From NCBI GenBank assembly GCA_036479435.1, contig JAZGFI010000170.1, positions 66,437-130,436 of the forward strand: a stretch of DNA of 64,000 bases, read 5' to 3'. Position 1 is the stretch's first letter. Every line of letters starts with the position of its first letter. Shown one piece after another: positions 30,830-61,418 of the stretch. The notes beneath the pieces were generated by a model. It had not been told where the DNA came from. It worked only from the letters and a program-made list of their open reading frames with translations, and ran no database searches. Both the position numbers and the translations under genes were made by a program. The stretch comes from Planctomycetota bacterium. Its GTDB lineage: Bacteria; Planctomycetota; GCA-002687715; DRQF01.

Positions 30830-31015
30830 CTGCGGTCATCCTCAGATGGTGCGGTGTCGATCGCAATAACAGTTCGCCGTGCAAACTCCCCTGACACGGC
30901 TGAAACGGCCAACTCATACGTGTTTATTGGTGAGAGCCGCTGCGGGCGAAGGAGAGAGCCATCCTCTTTCAGGTTGGCAGCGAAAGCTCTCTCCTGAGTC
31001 TTGCCGTGGAGCCAA

Positions 31016-31064
31016 GAGCGGGTGATGAGGCTCGAACTCACGACATTCAGCTTGGGAAGCTGAC
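31016..31064 (-). mobile_element. 3' fragment of tRNA-Gly(CCC), probable att site
   Basis: Minus strand: TCAGC-TTCCCAA-GCTGA anticodon arm, GTGAG-TTCGAGC-CTCAT T arm, CACCCGC acceptor 3' strand; D arm, 5' acceptor strand and CCA absent. Confidence 0.85.
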
Positions 31065-31187
31065 TCTGTTGATTGATGGCGTCGCGTTACTCATTACGAT
31101 GTCATTTGGATTACAACCCGACGTGGGCGTCGCGCAACTTCAGATCGGCGATGCGCTCTACAAATGGGTAATCGTGCCAAATCGTGC

Positions 31188-31718
31188 CTACTCAACGAGC
31201 CGATACCGACGAGCTCGCCCCTGTCCCAGGGGCTCAATTAGCTTCATCTCAACGAGTTGCGTCATGGTCCTCTTGAGGGTCCGGCTCGACACTTCGGCCG
31301 CAAGTTGCTCCTGGACCTCGCGCACAGCCAGTGAATCGCTACGCGAAAGGAGAGCCAAGGCTTCCCGTTGTAGTTCAGACAGGTTTTGCCCCACGCGCAA
31401 TGGTGGGCTGTAGCCCGCGGCAAAGAACGTCACGCAGACGAAACCGGCGGTTTCGGCGAAGTGAGGTTCTGGATGTCCGGCGGCAACACAAAGCTCGACA
31501 ATCTTTTGAGTACCTCGTCCCCATTTCTCGATGAGGCCAGCTCGGTAAAAAGTCTTCGCGATGAGGTCGTTTCGAGGCTTAGATAAGTGTTGCCTTTTCA
31601 AGTCCTGAACTCGAATTTCATCGGGTAGCGTTCCTGCGCTCCAGACCTCAAGGCGGTCGTCAAAAATAGCCACAGACACCGAACCGAAGTCTCCGTAATT
31701 CCGAGAGCACCGGGACCT
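31188..31718 (-). pseudogene. 5'-truncated HATPase_c_4 (RecG C-terminal-like) plus wHTH gene
   Basis: (C)SRNY..GSVSVAIFDDRLEV..G.LP, SKPRNDLIA, GLIEKWGRGT; N-terminal domains missing. Confidence 0.75.
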
Positions 31719-32216
31719 TCAATCTCGCCGTTCGCTGCTCTCAACGAGCACCTTGACGAACTCCTCGTACGCGGCGCGCTCTTCCGGGGACAGAGCGGCA
31801 TTTGGTTCGGATCGCGCCGCAAACCGAACTGCTGCCTGGCTGAGATAGTCATCTTGAGGTTGGGCGAGACCCGCCAGCTCCATGAGTTTTCCGGATGAAA
31901 GATTCAGGGCCAGGCCGAGTCGGTACACAGTTCTCGCCGAAGGGACCGGGCCCTCGTTCTGTTCGATGGCAACGAGCTCGCCCAGGTCGACGTCGGCCAC
32001 CTCCGCAAGGCGTTCCACAGAGAGTCCCTTCGCTCTTCGGGCGTACTCGATCAGCCTTCCGAATACGCGGGGAGCTTCAGGAAGCGCCTGTGATTCGAGT
32101 AACCCGACATCGTGCGCCATGCCTCCGACGGAAACTGACCCGCAACGATCTTCAGCTTCCGCCATTTTTAGCAGCCACTCATGGCTCGGTTTATCGTCAT
32201 GAGTTTGCTCGGTCAT
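31719..32216 (-). CDS. XRE-family HTH protein
   Basis: FGRLIEYARRAKGLSVERLAEVADV..IE; AAGGAGG RBS; ATGA overlap with upstream gene. Confidence 0.85.
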   Translation of the reverse strand: MTEQTHDDKPSHEWLLKMAEAEDRCGSVSVGGMAHDVGLLESQALPEAPRVFGRLIEYARRAKGLSVERLAEVADVDLGELVAIEQNEGPVPSARTVYRLGLALNLSSGKLMELAGLAQPQDDYLSQAAVRFAARSEPNAALSPEERAAYEEFVKVLVESSERRD

Positions 32217-32853
32217 GATGCACCTCCTTGATCCAGAAAGGACTTCGCCTGTTCGCTTGAGAATTCGAAGTAGAGCAAGTTCTGTTTTTCATCGTCCCGT
32301 CCGAGCGGCGTCATCCCACAGGTGTTTCGGTAGAAAACCTCTGCTTGAGGAAGCGAGTGAAGACCAACTCGTGCTCGAAACCCCTCCTCAAGACTCTGTC
32401 GAATTGCTGTTCGCATCAGCACGGCCCCGACCGCCATGAAGCGGCTTTTCTGGCCGAGAGATTCGATTCTCCAGTTCCAGGGCGCAACCTCGACATAGTC
32501 CACATACACGATGGGTTTCCCGGTGTCATCAGGAAGCCTCGCGGCGTGAGACGCGGTCTTAGTCATCAACACGCCCTGCCAATCCTCGTTGCACACGATC
32601 CCAAAGCCGCTTGCCTCGAGCAAACGAAGGTCCGCACGCTTCTTGCTCCAGTCCCAGTGCAGAGACTCCGGCCAATCCTCGCGCGGCGCTCCGCTCCGGA
32701 GTAGTCTCTCCAAGGTACGAAGGCGATAGGGGCTCCAACCGCGCTCGATCAGATCCAGGTCTGATGGACGAAGCCCATCGAGCAGTGTGGCATTGACCAC
32801 CTCATGGCCGTCGCCACTCCCTCGTCGGACGATTTCGACCGGCCCTCGCTCAC
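32213..32853 (-). CDS. GNAT-fold acetyltransferase, putative toxin; start ambiguous or frameshifted
   Basis: YVDYVEVAPWN, VGAVLM..AI..S...GF..RVGLHSLPQAEVFY; GTG at 32853 is out of frame, the next in-frame start is GTG 32800. Confidence 0.75.
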
Positions 32854-33059
32854 AGCACGACGACCTCAGCCTTCTTGGACTCCTTGTCCTCGAAGAACAG
32901 TTTTCCGCCGTCCGCAAGGCGTTCGTCCACGGCTTGATAGAGCCTGAGCGCTTGGCGGAGCACCGCCGTCTTGGACAGATCCTTGCGTTGAGCAAGGTCG
33001 CCGAGGACTTCCATCTCAGCTTTAGTCAGGTTCAGGGTCATCGTGCGTTTCTGAGCCAT
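32850..33059 (-). CDS. Ribbon-helix-helix (CopG-like) protein
   Basis: RTMTLNL beta strand plus EMEVLGDLAQRKDLSKTAVLRQALRLY; GAGG RBS. Confidence 0.85.
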   Translation of the reverse strand: MAQKRTMTLNLTKAEMEVLGDLAQRKDLSKTAVLRQALRLYQAVDERLADGGKLFFEDKESKKAEVVVL

Positions 33060-33108
33060 TTGTGCGTCCTCATTTGTAGGCCTCACTATACTCATCATCG
33101 GCCAAAAA

Positions 33109-33370: not shown

Positions 33371-35014
33371 TCACAGCCCGACGCGGGCGTCGCGGAGGTT
33401 TAGGTCGGCGAGGCGCTCCAAGAGCAGACCGCCGCGTTTGGAGATCTCGTAGGCGCCTTGGCCGGGGATGACGAGGATGAGGGTTTCGTGGTGGAGGCCC
33501 ATTCTTAGTTGGATGGGGGCTTGGTCTTTGTCGATGGGCATGCGGAAGAGTTCGCGGCCGGAGTGTTGAGTTGGGTCTTCGAAGGCGAGGATGCGGATGA
33601 AGCGTGACTCTTTTTCGTCGACCTCGCTGGTGAGGGTAAAGAGGGCTTGGCCATCGGTCACGGTGGAGCTGCGATTCACCTTTGCTGGGATTGGCAAACT
33701 TGTTGTTGCAGCTTGCTTGTCTTGGGCGCTGGCGCACCAAGTCATGGTCTTGCCGTCGCTTGGCGACTGCGCCCACCACCATCGGGCCTTAGTGAAGGTC
33801 GGCATGCCTAAGGTCTGGTCTTTGGAGAAGGGTGCGGGCCAGAGCTCGAGTTCTTTTTCTTCTGGGCGCAGGCGAAAGATCTGTCGGCGGTGCTGGAGTT
33901 TTTGAGCGTTGACGGTGGCGACGAGGCGCTCGAGGTAAATTTGGTCTCCCAGGCTTGAGACGCCGAGATCTTGGGGAAGGCCCGGGAGTTCGGGGTGGAT
34001 GATCTCATCTTTGGTGGAGCCACGGCGCCTGCGAACGAGCTTGCCGTCTTTGCTGCCGATGATGGAATCGTAGTGCCCAGCCCAGGTGGCTTGGGTGTAG
34101 CCACGTCCACCGAAGGGTAGCGTTGTTGCGCTCTCGGGTTGCCAGGTGCTGAGTTCACCTTCGCTTGAAACGAGCAACCAGGTGGCGGCAGATCGTTGCT
34201 GCATGCGCCGCACCCAAGTTTTTCGATCTCGGATTCCCGGTCCGGAACAACGGAGGAAACGGGTGATGCGGTCGACGATTTCGTCGTGTCGGGGGCGCAG
34301 CTCGGATTCTTTGAGGAGGGTTCTGATCGAGATGAGTTTTTGATCGTGGACGAACCAGGTCAGACAAAAAGTCAGAGGCTGGGGGCTGCCCGCTTCGTTT
34401 TCGTAGACGGTGTGGCGACCCGACCAACCCAATCCGGTGATGGGCCAAGCCCCAATGCGCCGCCAGTTTTTACCCTCTTTCTTTTCGATTTCGGCTAGCC
34501 TTAGTTCTTGCCATTCGGCGACGCGTCTAATGCTGCGGGCTCTGAGGTTGGCGGCGGGAAGGTCGAGGACGGTCCAGCTGAGATCTAAGGTCGTTGATGC
34601 AGGAAGTCCGCCAATGACAACACGTCCGCCTTCGGGCGTGGCGGCAAATTGAAAACCGGCGGGCAAGTACCAAGTCACCGAGGCGCGCGGGTCTCGCATG
34701 AGTTGGCCCCGAAAGGTCGGTGTCGAGGGGCCAGCTGGTGCTGCGGCGATCGCTTCAAGGAGGGTCTTGGTGGCGCCGAGTTTTTGGAAACCCGATCTTG
34801 CCATGGAATCGAGCGAGCTGGCGAAGCCGCGAGCCTGCAAGCTTTTGATGATGTCGGCTTCTTCGGCGCCGACGGCGAGCAGGGTGGCGATGTCGACGGC
34901 GCCTAGTGGCGTCTGATTCGCGTCTTGGTCTTTTTGTCCTTGTGCCGGCAAGAACGACCCCATGCAGAAAAACATGGCGCTGGCTAAGGCAAGAGAGGCG
35001 GCGCGATGGATCAT
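33371..35014 (-). CDS. Secreted hypothetical protein
   Basis: 547-aa ORF with signal peptide (..FLPAQG); ATGA overlap with upstream M28-like gene. Confidence 0.7.
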   Translation of the reverse strand: MIHRAASLALASAMFFCMGSFLPAQGQKDQDANQTPLGAVDIATLLAVGAEEADIIKSLQARGFASSLDSMARSGFQKLGATKTLLEAIAAAPAGPSTPTFRGQLMRDPRASVTWYLPAGFQFAATPEGGRVVIGGLPASTTLDLSWTVLDLPAANLRARSIRRVAEWQELRLAEIEKKEGKNWRRIGAWPITGLGWSGRHTVYENEAGSPQPLTFCLTWFVHDQKLISIRTLLKESELRPRHDEIVDRITRFLRCSGPGIRDRKTWVRRMQQRSAATWLLVSSEGELSTWQPESATTLPFGGRGYTQATWAGHYDSIIGSKDGKLVRRRRGSTKDEIIHPELPGLPQDLGVSSLGDQIYLERLVATVNAQKLQHRRQIFRLRPEEKELELWPAPFSKDQTLGMPTFTKARWWWAQSPSDGKTMTWCASAQDKQAATTSLPIPAKVNRSSTVTDGQALFTLTSEVDEKESRFIRILAFEDPTQHSGRELFRMPIDKDQAPIQLRMGLHHETLILVIPGQGAYEISKRGGLLLERLADLNLRDARVGL

Positions 35015-37200
35015 GAGTCGTCGCTCGACTTGGTGGGGGCCACAAGACCCTCGAAAGAAAGCGCCAGCGCTTCTAAGTGGGTGGCGAAACGGCGAAGTGC
35101 CGTGGTGATGCGAGTGGCCTCGCGTTGGGCGCCGTCTTGATCGGCCGCGCGCAGCGCGTCTTCCAAGCTGGGAAAAAGCTCTACGGCCGGGCTGCGATCG
35201 GGGTCGGGAGCGGTGAGCAGATGGCGGTACCAGGGGCGGAGGGGGTTGCCGCCCTCAAGTCCTAAGAGACGTTCGGCGGCGAGTAGCCTTTTGTTGAGCG
35301 CTCCCACGGTGTTGCTGGGGGGCAGCTTGAGGGCCGCTGTTCGCCGGGCGCGGTCTAAGCGCTGGCCCGCGGTTCGGATCTGCAGACTTAGTTCTGTAAA
35401 TTCACTGAGGTCCAACTCTGGTCGTCGCTTGGCGAGTTGGCGGGTGGCGACGGCGATCGCGGTGCCGCTGCGTCTAAAGTCGTAGGGTATCCAAGGAGCT
35501 AAAGCCAAGCGGGAAACGAGGGCCGCCGCAATGCGCGCTAGGGTGGCGCAGTTTTTGAAGCCGGGATCGACGAATCGCTCGGCGGCGCGAAAGGTGTCGT
35601 ACTTGGAACCGCGTAGCCCTTCGGAACCGCCAAACTCAAGGTTGAGGATCGGGATGCACAGGTGGCCTTGGAAGGCGAGTGCATCTGGCGACTGGGCTCC
35701 GTGAAACTCGAGGGTCGAGGAACTGAGCTTACCCAAAGACAAAGAGTTGATGACTTCGCCGAGTGCGGTTGCTAACGAAGGCGTGCCGCGTGAACGGAAG
35801 GTGTTGCCAAAGACACCGTTTCCAAGGTCGATGTAAGCGACTGCCTCGGCCATCAAAGTGGCGCGTTCTTGTTCGGCCCACTCGGCGGCGCCCAGTCCAC
35901 CAAAGGTTGAAGCGTCCCAACTGGCAAAAACCAAGGTGCGTTTCGGAGGTGATCCGGCGCGGGCACGCTCGGCGAGGACGCGGGCGACCTCCATCATGAC
36001 GGCGGTGCCGGTGCCGGCGGCGATGGCTCCGTGGCCCCAGGCGTCACGATGACTGCCGACCAAGACTCTTTCGTCCGACCGTTCAAGGCCCGGCCACAGT
36101 GCCACCACGTTCGTCACTTTGCGCAGTCGGTAGTCACACTTGACTTTGAGCGACAACAAGACTTCTTTGCCGCCGAGGTGGTAGGTGAGGGGGAGGGCGC
36201 CTTGCCAACCTGTTGGAACTGCCGGCCCCTTCATGCTCTCAAGAATGGGCTTCGCATCGGCCGCAGAGATTGAGAGGGAGGGGATTTGGCAAAGGGTTTC
36301 CATCTGGTCGTAGCTGAGGTGCTCGGCCCTGGCGCGGCTTGGTTGCTCAGGGGTTCCAGGGTCTCCGGCGCGGAGCGCCAAACGCAAAGTCGAACCTCGT
36401 GAGGCGCCGCCTTCGGGGCGGTATTTTCCGCGGGGGGCGACCTCGCCCCTTGGGAAACCATCCTCGGCTGGATCGGCGTAGACCACCATGCCGAGTGCGC
36501 CAGCACTCTCGGCGAGTCCACTTTTGGCCGCGGCGTCGATCACCCCGCGGCGCACGAGGACGATCTTGCCTTTGACCGAGATCCCCAGCTCTGAAAGCTC
36601 GCGGTAGTCTTCGATGCGACCATAGTTGGCGTAGATGACGGCGGCTTGGAACTCAGCGTCGGCGCCGTAGGCCAAAAAGGGCGGGTGGACGGCCGACTCG
36701 GTGGTGTCGAAGTCGCCAGAAAGGGCCGGTTCACGCAAAGCGGCGGCGAAGGCGAAGGGCTCGACCATTTCGAGCTCAGTTTCGACCGGATAGGGCAGCA
36801 GCACCTCGTAGTGCTGTTCTTCGACCTGGTAGCCGAGTTCCTGGAAAAGTTGGACCAAGTAGCGAGACAAACCGGCATTCGCAGCGCTTCCTGCCGGATG
36901 CGGAGCCGCAGAGATCTCTTTTAGGATATCGGCAATCCGGGCCGGACGGACGTCCTGAGCGAGGATCGCCGCGAATTCGGCGGCGGCCCGATCTTCTGGG
37001 CCCTGCGGCGGCTTCTCTTTGGTGGATAACGGCGGTTTACCGCCATCTGGGGTCTGAAGGGCGGCTTTTTGCTCAAGATCCCCAGCCCCTGCCTCGGGAT
37101 TGAGGCTGCCGTCGTCGCTTGAGCTACAAGCAACCTCGATCAACATCACTGCCACAAGAGCGAGGGCCAGCCCGTGTCGTCGCCAGGAGCTACAAGACAT
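35011..37200 (-). CDS. M28B (PSMA/transferrin-receptor-like) lipoprotein with PA and dimerisation domains, catalytic residues lost
   Basis: PHPAGS, YEVLLPYP, YANYGRIEDY, KGKIVLVR, GSHRDAW, RPWYRHLLTAP; lipobox-like EVAC. Confidence 0.88.
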   Translation of the reverse strand: MSCSSWRRHGLALALVAVMLIEVACSSSDDGSLNPEAGAGDLEQKAALQTPDGGKPPLSTKEKPPQGPEDRAAAEFAAILAQDVRPARIADILKEISAAPHPAGSAANAGLSRYLVQLFQELGYQVEEQHYEVLLPYPVETELEMVEPFAFAAALREPALSGDFDTTESAVHPPFLAYGADAEFQAAVIYANYGRIEDYRELSELGISVKGKIVLVRRGVIDAAAKSGLAESAGALGMVVYADPAEDGFPRGEVAPRGKYRPEGGASRGSTLRLALRAGDPGTPEQPSRARAEHLSYDQMETLCQIPSLSISAADAKPILESMKGPAVPTGWQGALPLTYHLGGKEVLLSLKVKCDYRLRKVTNVVALWPGLERSDERVLVGSHRDAWGHGAIAAGTGTAVMMEVARVLAERARAGSPPKRTLVFASWDASTFGGLGAAEWAEQERATLMAEAVAYIDLGNGVFGNTFRSRGTPSLATALGEVINSLSLGKLSSSTLEFHGAQSPDALAFQGHLCIPILNLEFGGSEGLRGSKYDTFRAAERFVDPGFKNCATLARIAAALVSRLALAPWIPYDFRRSGTAIAVATRQLAKRRPELDLSEFTELSLQIRTAGQRLDRARRTAALKLPPSNTVGALNKRLLAAERLLGLEGGNPLRPWYRHLLTAPDPDRSPAVELFPSLEDALRAADQDGAQREATRITTALRRFATHLEALALSFEGLVAPTKSSDDS

Positions 37201-37292
37201 AGTCAAAGGGATATCCCCCCCGAGGGAAAAAAGGACCGACCTGTGGTCCGTTTATCAGACGAGCGGAGGACGCTTTGTCTTCTTGCGTCGCC

Positions 37293-37336
37293 AAAAAAAG
37301 AAACCCCCGGGGGAACTGGCAAGCTTCCGGGGGTTT
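37293..37336 (-). terminator. Intrinsic terminator
   Basis: AAACCCCCGG / CCGGGGGTTT stem followed by CTTTTTTT on the minus strand. Confidence 0.85.
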
Positions 37337-37575
37337 ATCTCGGACGAGAAGAGGTTTACGGGACCATTCTCATTTGTCCAAAATCTGATTGTTACCGCTT
37401 GGTTACGGTATTGGCGACTTGCGCCGCATTCGCTCGCTCTGCCCTCCTGCGAGGGGGGCTTGGCTTCCCGTGATCGCTCTTCAAGCGAGTTTTCCACACG
37501 CTATCAACGTTTCTCACGATCTTATCTTCAGTCGAAGACTTAGAGTCGTTACGGGCGCAAGGTCGCGGTAGCCAC
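37293..37575 (-). ncRNA. Candidate structured ncRNA or cis-regulatory leader (~283 nt), family unknown
   Basis: Bounded by consensus promoter and intrinsic terminator; several complementary segments; no credible ORF. Confidence 0.65.
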
Positions 37576-37582
37576 GAGCGGG

Positions 37583-37611
37583 ATTATAGATCCCGTTTCA
37601 GGGCTGGTCAA
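37583..37611 (-). promoter_or_regulatory. Sigma70 promoter
   Basis: TTGACC-17 nt-TATAAT on the minus strand. Confidence 0.85.
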
Positions 37612-38016
37612 CAGCGTAGTTTATCGGCAGCTGGAGCCCAAGCGCTTGGTGAGATTCTGGGGGCTCATTTTAAGTCGTTATAATCAAATCGTTTAGGTCA
37701 GAAATTCTCGAAAGTCCACTTCCCGTGACCTGCGGCTCGACTCGTGACCTCCAAAGCACCGAGCCCCTTGGTCTCATGAGACTTGGGGCGTTTTTAGGCC
37801 CTCAAAATCCGGCCGTTTTGGGCCCCAAAAGGCCCGAAGATTTCTTCTTAACAAACACAATTTTCAAGATCTTGAGTTTGGGCTGGACTTTGGGGCCAGC
37901 CGTCGGTTTTTCACGAGCTTGTTGGTCGCAACGTCGGTGCGCATCTTCGGGAAACGTTACCCCGCGCGGACGTTTTTGAGTTTGCCCTTAATCTTGCGCG
38001 ATGGTGCGGGCGTGTT

Positions 38017-60875: not shown

Positions 60876-61091
60876 AGTTGCGTCAAATGAGGTGCTTATC
60901 TTGGTGCCGAGATCAAAACTTGAGCCCGCTGTTTCGATTTTCACTGAAGGTTTTTTGCCGTGATGACGATTTTTTCTTGTTGAAGCCGTCAGTCGCGTGC
61001 TTTATTTTTTCTCGTGAGTGGTATGCATGCTCGTCGTCCACTCACACTTACGGGACCATAGACGAGCTTGACTCTCTTAAGGAGTTGGGAA

Positions 61092-61418
61092 TTGGCTAAG
61101 AAAACTACGAAGAAACGGGCGACCAAAAAAAAGGCCGTCCGCAAAACCACCAAGAAGAAGGCCGTGAAGAAAAAGGCCACGAAGAAAAAGGCCACTCGCA
61201 AGAAGGCCACTAAGAAGAAGGCCACTAAGAAGAAGGCCACTAAGAAGAAGGCCACCAAGAAGAAGGCCACTAAGAAGAAGGCCACTAAGAAGAAGGCCAC
61301 CAAGAAGAAGGCCACGAAGAAAAAGGCTACTCGCAAAAAAGCCACCAAGAAGAAGGCCACTCGCAAGAAGGCCACGAAGAAAAAGGCGACACGCAAAAAA
61401 GCTACGCGTCGCCGATAG
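61092..61418 (+). CDS. Histone-H1-like Lys/Ala/Thr-repeat nucleoid protein
   Basis: AAGGAG RBS then TTG; tandem KKKAT/RKKAT pentapeptides with synonymous third-position variation. Confidence 0.85.
   Translation: MAKKTTKKRATKKKAVRKTTKKKAVKKKATKKKATRKKATKKKATKKKATKKKATKKKATKKKATKKKATKKKATKKKATRKKATKKKATRKKATKKKATRKKATRRR

Follow-up and report, generated by a model that had tools for sequence, protein, structure and literature searches.

The window, a 64,000-nt stretch of planctomycete DNA, carries on its minus strand a compact unit of promoter, hairpin and terminator that is very probably a real small regulatory RNA gene common to a whole class of uncultured planctomycetes, as judged by comparing its source genome (G000) with 22 other genomes of the class (G001–G022), nine genomes making up the window's own family. 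Its elements are as follows.

37583–37611, minus strand: sigma-70-type promoter TTGACC-17-TATAAT (motif match; a similar promoter lies upstream of all homologues)
37293–37576, minus strand: predicted small RNA of about 284 nt, its 5′ end placed from the −10 box
37411–37576, minus strand: variable 5′ domain, the multi-hairpin part of the preliminary description, not conserved (family comparison, fold z)
37391–37410, minus strand: small hairpin or palindrome of GTTAC-N6-GTAAC type, in the window's family only, without compensatory change
37337–37384, minus strand: conserved core hairpin with a UCGGA/UCCGA outer stem (covariation on 20 sequences; covariance models R1 and R2)
37356–37367, minus strand: seed 1, the apical loop AUGGUCCCGUAA, complementary to target site 1
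37293–37336, minus strand: intrinsic terminator, stem and U-run
37311–37323, minus strand: seed 2, the terminator loop CUUGCCAGUUCCC, complementary to the target's start-codon region

The preliminary description had read a TTGACC-17-TATAAT promoter and a terminator ending near 37293 on this strand, and both readings hold. The promoter, at 37611–37583, fits 11 of 12 consensus positions, with one such site found against 0.3 expected, and is the only match to TTGACN-N16–18-TATAAT in the 5.47-Mb genome. The terminator's stem and U-run are present at 37336–37293; a simple terminator scanner did not flag them, probably because of the long loop. The whole unit folds at a z of −3.66, and the predicted lengths of the homologous RNAs range from 174 to 359 nt, one further homologue spanning an assembly gap. 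No run recorded as RNA was found for the stretch; of three runs of one study, two have contigs that span it without differences and may be its source, and the third covers it patchily. No known RNA family had been recognised at the locus, and database models agree: neither the window nor any of 16 homologous loci reaches the gathering score of an Rfam model, the best match of an E-value scan (E 0.34) covered only the terminator, and ARAGORN found nothing in the window. The 6S model RF00013 (a long rod with a central bubble), which had been named as a possible match, did not match here; the best 6S candidate of the genome lies on another contig next to RNase P (G000:C271:8802-8988, L012), scores 35 bits, below the Rfam cut-off, and is convergent with the RNase P RNA gene. 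In the main texts of open-access papers and bioRxiv preprints we found no description of the RNA, and the part of PMC2864571 considered here lists only a different motif for Planctomycetes.

Homology is concentrated at the 3′ end. BLAST recovered the 3′ ~115 nt in all eight other family genomes, with the promoter aligning as well and the middle not, and at the level of covariance comparison across the class the conserved part is the 3′ ~95 nt only. Model R1, built from the nine family sequences, matched 20 of the 23 class genomes, and model R2, built from 20 sequences, matched all 23, with one strong copy each (43–92 bits; next matches at most 26.5 bits); the three genomes held out of R2 each have the promoter, a GGTCCCGTAA loop and the terminator. 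The promoter–hairpin–terminator unit is thus present in 23/23 genomes, the promoter being weakest in G017, and the hairpin loop GGUCCCGUAA in 22/23. The covariation check that the preliminary description had proposed came out positive on the 20-sequence alignment, where 88.5% of cells pair and double-change cells number 41 against 17.5 in shuffles (0/500 as high), and was not significant on the nine family sequences alone. Short ORFs preceded by a Shine-Dalgarno sequence (SD) occur in 8 of the 23 homologues, none shared beyond one sister pair, and no conserved small ORF was found within the RNA in the 23. Every homologue accordingly shows what is expected of a trans-encoded base-pairing sRNA, namely its own promoter and terminator and no conserved ORF, and the earlier suggestion of a new stable ncRNA gains support from this single-copy, covarying unit. 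Outside the class, R1 matched 3 of 144 and R2 8 of 141 sampled genomes of the phylum, all weakly and, on inspection, at the terminator only, so none of the genomes searched outside the class yielded the RNA. A genome-collection scan gave 16 matches, eight to family members and eight by chance; among the at least 120 matches listed in a metagenome scan two were real, both matching family members, and among the at least 120 listed in a viral scan with a loose pattern 11 had a partial flank motif and none resembled the element.

Function had initially been placed in the multi-hairpin 5′ domain, a placement that the comparison does not sustain: only the 3′ ~115 nt align in relatives, the 5′ domain is lineage-specific, and two 3′ loops complementary to a target mRNA, described below, had been missed. 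By themselves the 5′ 167 nt fold at a z of −1.51, with 13 of 200 shuffles as good. The helices that had been named are all present in the sequence, but the ACGUU/AGCGU and UCGCU/AGCGA hairpins do not both occur in the predicted fold, and the GCGAC/GUCGC long-range helix is not conserved, its arms lying at the expected positions in one of nine family genomes. The GTTAC-N6-GTAAC element showed no compensatory change within the family. We rejected it as the operator of a regulon, because it is restricted to the family, G000 has just one other exact site, and this spacing is no commoner than others; we likewise rejected a Met-Val-Pro-stop leader peptide, because G001, G005 and the genomes outside the family lack its ATG. 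Repeated GTGGA/GCGGAAA words (37488–37496, minus strand, and family homologues) include a perfect DnaA box in 4/9 genomes; an oriC or datA role suggested by the TGTGGAAAA boxes, of which a perfect one is found in 4/9 family transcripts, was set aside because the 130-kb contig shows no GC-skew inversion. At 37544–37559 (minus strand), in G000 only, a second CCCGUAA preceded by CUUGC echoes both seeds. Roughly 60–110 nt upstream of the sRNA promoter in most homologues lies an AT-rich stretch (about 37660–37680, minus strand) resembling an IHF site, which might possibly link nucleoid state to sRNA transcription.

Past the terminator, after 87 nt, starts the dead M28 ORF that had been placed about 90 nt away. 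It encodes an M28/PA/TFR-dimer lipoprotein (35011–37206, minus strand) without catalytic residues, the metal-binding and catalytic positions having changed from DPG to AAG, EE to ST, NID to DLG and YH to RG; the orthologues in G004 and G006, at 41% identity, keep them, and the protein of the window is by this comparison a lineage-specific pseudo-enzyme. A second small terminator-like hairpin stands between the sRNA and the M28 gene in G000 (37233–37249, minus strand). SRAP directly follows M28 in G004 and G006; in the window a block inserted between the SRAP gene and the operon (31006–33098) holds a truncated RecG-like/HTH gene, an XRE-type HTH gene and ORFs of 260 aa (unannotated) and 82 aa.

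The preliminary description had offered, as its other branch, a riboswitch or attenuator controlling this M28 gene, which we regard as the least probable of the explanations considered here. The downstream gene does lie on the same strand in all genomes inspected, and in G017 the 7-nt distance between the U-run and its start points to likely read-through. Across families, however, the RNA precedes three unrelated genes. The window's family has an M28 peptidase there (checked with Pfam in three genomes), two other families have an FHA protein (checked with Pfam in one genome and assigned in the others by similar N-termini), and a fourth has ClpS; the homologues thus do not always precede the same gene, which argues against a riboswitch for M28. 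In predicted folds the terminator forms with probability 1.0 in 23/23 and costs 12.7–28.9 kcal/mol to forbid, and the 23 homologues revealed neither a conserved antiterminator nor a consistent sequestration of the terminator's 5′ arm. Past the terminator there is also a separate −10-like box in 10 of 14 genomes outside the window's family, and a TGGACG-17-TATCNT promoter in 5 of 9 family genomes.

The 12-mer of seed 1 occurs five times in G000, and one complement falls in the 5′ leader of a 108-aa Lys-rich ORF that lies 23.7 kb from the sRNA gene, within the window. The features of this predicted target are:

60980–61008, plus strand: predicted target promoter TTGAAG-17-TATTTT, with an equivalent promoter in 21/21 leaders
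61048–61059, plus strand: target site 1, located in the 5′ leader and complementary to seed 1 over 12 bp without mismatch; a hairpin apex in most genomes
61070–61086, plus strand: hairpin hiding the target's SD, GGAG (predicted folds)
61087–61096, plus strand: target site 2, the spacer together with the UUG start codon; 10 bp to seed 2, one of them G-U
61092–61418, plus strand: target ORF, 108 aa, 51% Lys, KKAT repeats, histone-H1-tail-like

The leader was recovered in 21 of the 23 class genomes (G002 and G019 are missing from the leader counts). Of these 21, 19 carry site 1 exactly (TTACGGGACC); its centre lies 37–46 nt ahead of the start codon (TTG, ATG or GTG), and no other stretch of the untranslated leader is near-invariant in the alignment. 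Since 8% of shuffled 18-mers also match one or another G000 leader over 12 nt, the match in G000 carries little weight by itself and its replication across the class is the test. Cognate RNAs and leaders pair over 9–18 bp at this site, with a mean run of 14.3 bp against 11.4 bp for non-cognate partners (0/20,000 permutations, although such permutation p-values overstate significance because kin genomes are not independent); with one genome per genus the cognate mean is 15.1 bp against 12.5 bp for swapped pairs. Changes in the RNA are matched in the leader: an extra A goes with an extra U (G006, G008), GUAAGC with GCUUAC (G003, G011) and, between families, AUGG with CCAU as against AAGG with CCUU. 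The RNA of G020 is the only one without the CCCGUA seed, and this genome is also the only one whose target loop has changed by more than one base (ACGG to GUGC), its stem remaining intact. The co-loss of seed and site in G020 is, from the alignments, certain. Rewiring of the seed to the changed loop is possible, as the G020 RNA has a new 9-bp Watson-Crick match to that loop (13/5000 shuffles, or 0.12 when G-U is allowed), and is graded no higher because the match lies partly inside stems and two other RNAs reach 8 bp.

Several observations do not follow this pattern. Uncompensated changes at site 1 occur in G009/G018 (G to C), G010 (U to A), G013 (target U to A) and G021 (one bulge). By whole-duplex energy the cognate leader is the best partner for 6 of 21 RNAs, and for the G000 RNA it is the worst; in several genomes the net gain on cofolding falls inside the spread of values given by shuffled leaders. 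With these exceptions, the RNA presents a conserved accessible seed that is complementary to, and co-varies with, a distant mRNA. Among 60 other sites compared as secondary targets none was conserved beyond one sister-species pair, and seed complements were not enriched at gene starts, as a general anti-SD role would have them; a duplex scan limited to −40 to +20, a span that excludes site 1, gave nothing beyond shuffles. Further 10–15-nt matches to seed 1 lie at G000:C174:27658, C221:14205 and C99:44971, one of them on the coding strand of a methylmalonyl-CoA-mutase-like gene; conservation of these matches was not seen in the 60 sites compared. The segment G000:C90:18900-19420, which follows a LexA-like gene, possibly encodes another small RNA; it contains the 12-mer once more in exact form, along with three GAGGAGGGAGGT-type repeats in tandem whose other strand is rich in CCUCC.

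A second complementarity involves the terminator loop, which pairs over at least 8 bp at or next to the target start codon in 15 of the 21 genomes; G014 and G022 show weak, partial complementarity, and G011, G012, G013 and G016 lack it. The mean run is 8.2 bp for cognate and 6.7 bp for non-cognate pairs (p 0.00025 with one genome per genus), with a G-U wobble in G000 and G003 and matched variants in g6, g7 and G017. Here too the two partners change together, GCCAAAGC with GCUUUGGC in G009 and G018, UGAUUCCC with GGGAAUCA in G010, G015 and G020, and AAGUCCC with GGGACUU in G017. When the 4518 predicted genes of G000 are ranked, the target takes the top place both for site 1 and for the two sites summed, is 29th for site 2, and no other gene has both runs, in a ranking whose genes come from a simple in-house caller and whose search windows were chosen after the target was known.

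The target gene lies about 19–30 kb from the sRNA gene in most genomes (19–227 kb where both are on one contig, otherwise on separate contigs), and pattern and protein searches for it coincided across the class. Outside the class the leader pattern matched 94 of 378 genomes, similar by eye to a reversed-pattern control, and the 15 loci examined there held no Lys-rich ORF. The leader (64–100 nt) is predicted to fold into a 5′ hairpin, the target hairpin and an SD-hiding hairpin, with a mean SD unpaired probability of 0.25 over 21 leaders. The orthologous proteins measure 20–154 aa, some being cut by contig ends; in several genera (L370, L368, L385, L386, L387, L389, L445, L447, L448) the protein has 20–30 aa, a size that gene callers could miss. 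In Pfam the target protein matches no family at E 0.05, Hc1 included, NCBIfam gives weak sub-cut-off matches to hist_H1_lk_Burk and HC2 only, and its Atlas neighbours are unnamed, two of 30 falling in a cluster set of whose members 23% carry HC2. A histone-like, DNA-binding role for the protein is therefore inferred from composition and sub-threshold matches only.

Taken together, the two co-varying complementarities make it very likely that the sRNA pairs with the mRNA of the Lys-rich protein, and we give a probability of roughly 0.7 to the reading that it represses translation of this histone-H1-tail-like protein. The gene is, as the comparison shows, a free-standing promoter–hairpin–terminator unit, and probably a strongly transcribed one. 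Its core hairpin loop would pair with the mirror-image loop of the leader hairpin 37–46 nt upstream of the start codon, and the contact would zip into a duplex of 9–18 bp, as complementarity and co-variation suggest; the position of site 1 at the apex of a hairpin mirroring the RNA's own in most genomes points to loop–loop kissing followed by zippering. The terminator loop would, on the same kind of evidence, pair over 8–10 bp with the spacer and start codon. Loading of the 30S subunit might thereby be blocked on a ribosome-binding site already hidden in a hairpin, and the duplex may be offered to RNase III, which is present in G000; Hfq, CsrA, KhpA/B and Ro60 were not found in this genome (92% complete). 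By analogy with IhtA and HctA, a DNA-condensing and potentially growth-inhibiting protein would be kept scarce until less of the RNA is made or its target out-titrates it. Because the SD stays hidden when site 1 is occupied, activation is not expected; this and the position of site 2 on the initiation region make repression the likeliest sign. A standby-site model with a single-stranded site, as first framed, was rejected, site 1 being a hairpin apex.

The pairing could be real and its outcome something other than repression, with the RNA stabilising or processing the mRNA, or an abundant leader acting as a sponge for the RNA. Such an outcome would fit a site 1 that lies 37–46 nt upstream of the start, outside the ribosome footprint, and a site 2 that is weak or absent in 6 of 21 genomes; we consider it unlikely, given that site 2 sits on or adjoins the start codon in 15 of 21 and that occupancy of site 1 leaves the SD hidden (unpaired probability 0.25 to 0.24), so that no anti-antisense activation is predicted. 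Another explanation dispenses with RNA–RNA contact and makes both 10-mers one DNA-binding-protein site in opposite orientation. Both are imperfect palindromes, three further exact 12-mer copies occur in G000 against 0.13 expected under a Markov-5 model (shuffled 12-mers reach 0–4), and the mismatches at site 1 are symmetric, 13 being G-U and 15 A-C, so that the mismatch test does not favour RNA over DNA. Yet conservation peaks in the asymmetric centre and not in the arms, the 60 other sites are not shared beyond one sister-species pair, so that there is no regulon, and a protein site would leave aside the second, independently co-varying complementarity that covers the start codon; we hold this explanation to be very unlikely.

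Less probable again is a housekeeping RNA that binds a protein or the ribosome, such as a 6S/Ms1-like decoy, a CsrA sponge or a partner of 16S helix 14, with the leader match incidental. A single copy, class-wide occurrence and a strong promoter would suit such an RNA, and the loop contains a 7-mer complementary to 16S h14 in 11/11 assembled 16S genes. The h14 match, however, is a 7-mer found post hoc, and the two deviant genomes have no assembled 16S; the genome has its genes for a 6S-like RNA (35 bits, full length), RNase P, tmRNA and SRP at other loci, no CsrA was found in G000, and co-variation with the leader would go unexplained. A CsrB/RsmZ decoy had also been considered and was rejected, with GGA occurring five times against three for TCC in G000 and no CsrA found in this 92% complete genome.

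If the RNA is a repressor of the Lys-rich protein, the pair offers a named candidate for a nucleoid-condensing protein of planctomycetes, one easily missed by annotation; a 2012 paper on Gemmata, a different lineage, treated these proteins as unidentified (PMC3440768). It also offers a regulator with exact predicted base pairs that could be tested in E. coli, as IhtA/hctA was, and a rare case of an orphan bacterial ncRNA whose target is assigned purely from co-evolution, at two sites independently and with a joint loss as natural control. We speculate, while thinking it doubtful, that the two genes form a planctomycete chromatin-condensation module, in which an unannotated Lys-rich protein of 20–150 residues compacts the nucleoid or arrests growth and is held off by a two-loop clamp RNA without a known chaperone; together with IhtA/HctA this would represent a recurring, independently evolved, dedicated antisense brake on H1-like bacterial proteins.

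Among known systems, 6S, tmRNA, RNase P and SRP RNAs resemble the planctomycete RNA as single-copy, widely conserved structured RNAs with their own promoters, and differ in that none of their models matched it and the genome carries each of the four at another locus. A type I toxin–antitoxin pair was rejected, as the two genes are neither adjacent nor overlapping and lie 19–227 kb apart or on other contigs. This spacing also separates the system from IstR-1 and tisB, whose genes are adjacent. In both systems the mRNA has a 5′ hairpin and a structured ribosome-binding site, and the antisense pairing, here a predicted one, falls upstream of the latter (for tisB, PMC6690012); the pairing site in tisB is single-stranded and about 100 nt away, whereas here a hairpin apex lies about 40 nt away, and tisB encodes a membrane toxin, whereas the predicted product here is a soluble Lys-rich peptide. 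Two distant regions of S. aureus RNAIII pair with the coa mRNA, one masking the initiation region and the other by a loop–loop contact (PMC2837412), which resembles the predicted two-site pairing with one mRNA, and RNase III is available here as well; the loop–loop site in coa lies in the coding region and here upstream, and RNAIII is a multi-target virulence regulator, whereas we found one conserved target.

The closest parallel comes from Chlamydia, which belongs with the planctomycetes to the PVC group. There the 107-nt, three-stem RNA IhtA represses the histone-like protein HctA by means of a 7-nt loop over the start codon, without Hfq (PMC4355289; PMC3469542). Shared features are a trans-encoded RNA in a genome in which Hfq was not found, target proteins that begin Met-Ala, and a loop that faces the start codon of an mRNA for a small, basic, histone-like protein, here by predicted pairing of at least 8 bp at or next to that codon in 15 of 21 genomes. 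IhtA, though, uses one 7-nt loop, whereas the planctomycete RNA (174–359 nt) has two, the more conserved of which faces an upstream leader hairpin and the second of which is the terminator loop; and the planctomycete target, matching no Pfam family, Hc1 included, is not Hc1/HctA. Because of this target and the two-loop architecture, we do not file the RNA as IhtA but set it apart as one apparently like IhtA in its working; it is best read, by sequence comparison and this analogy, as a trans-acting, apparently Hfq-independent repressor that would act on its Lys-rich target much as IhtA acts on hctA.
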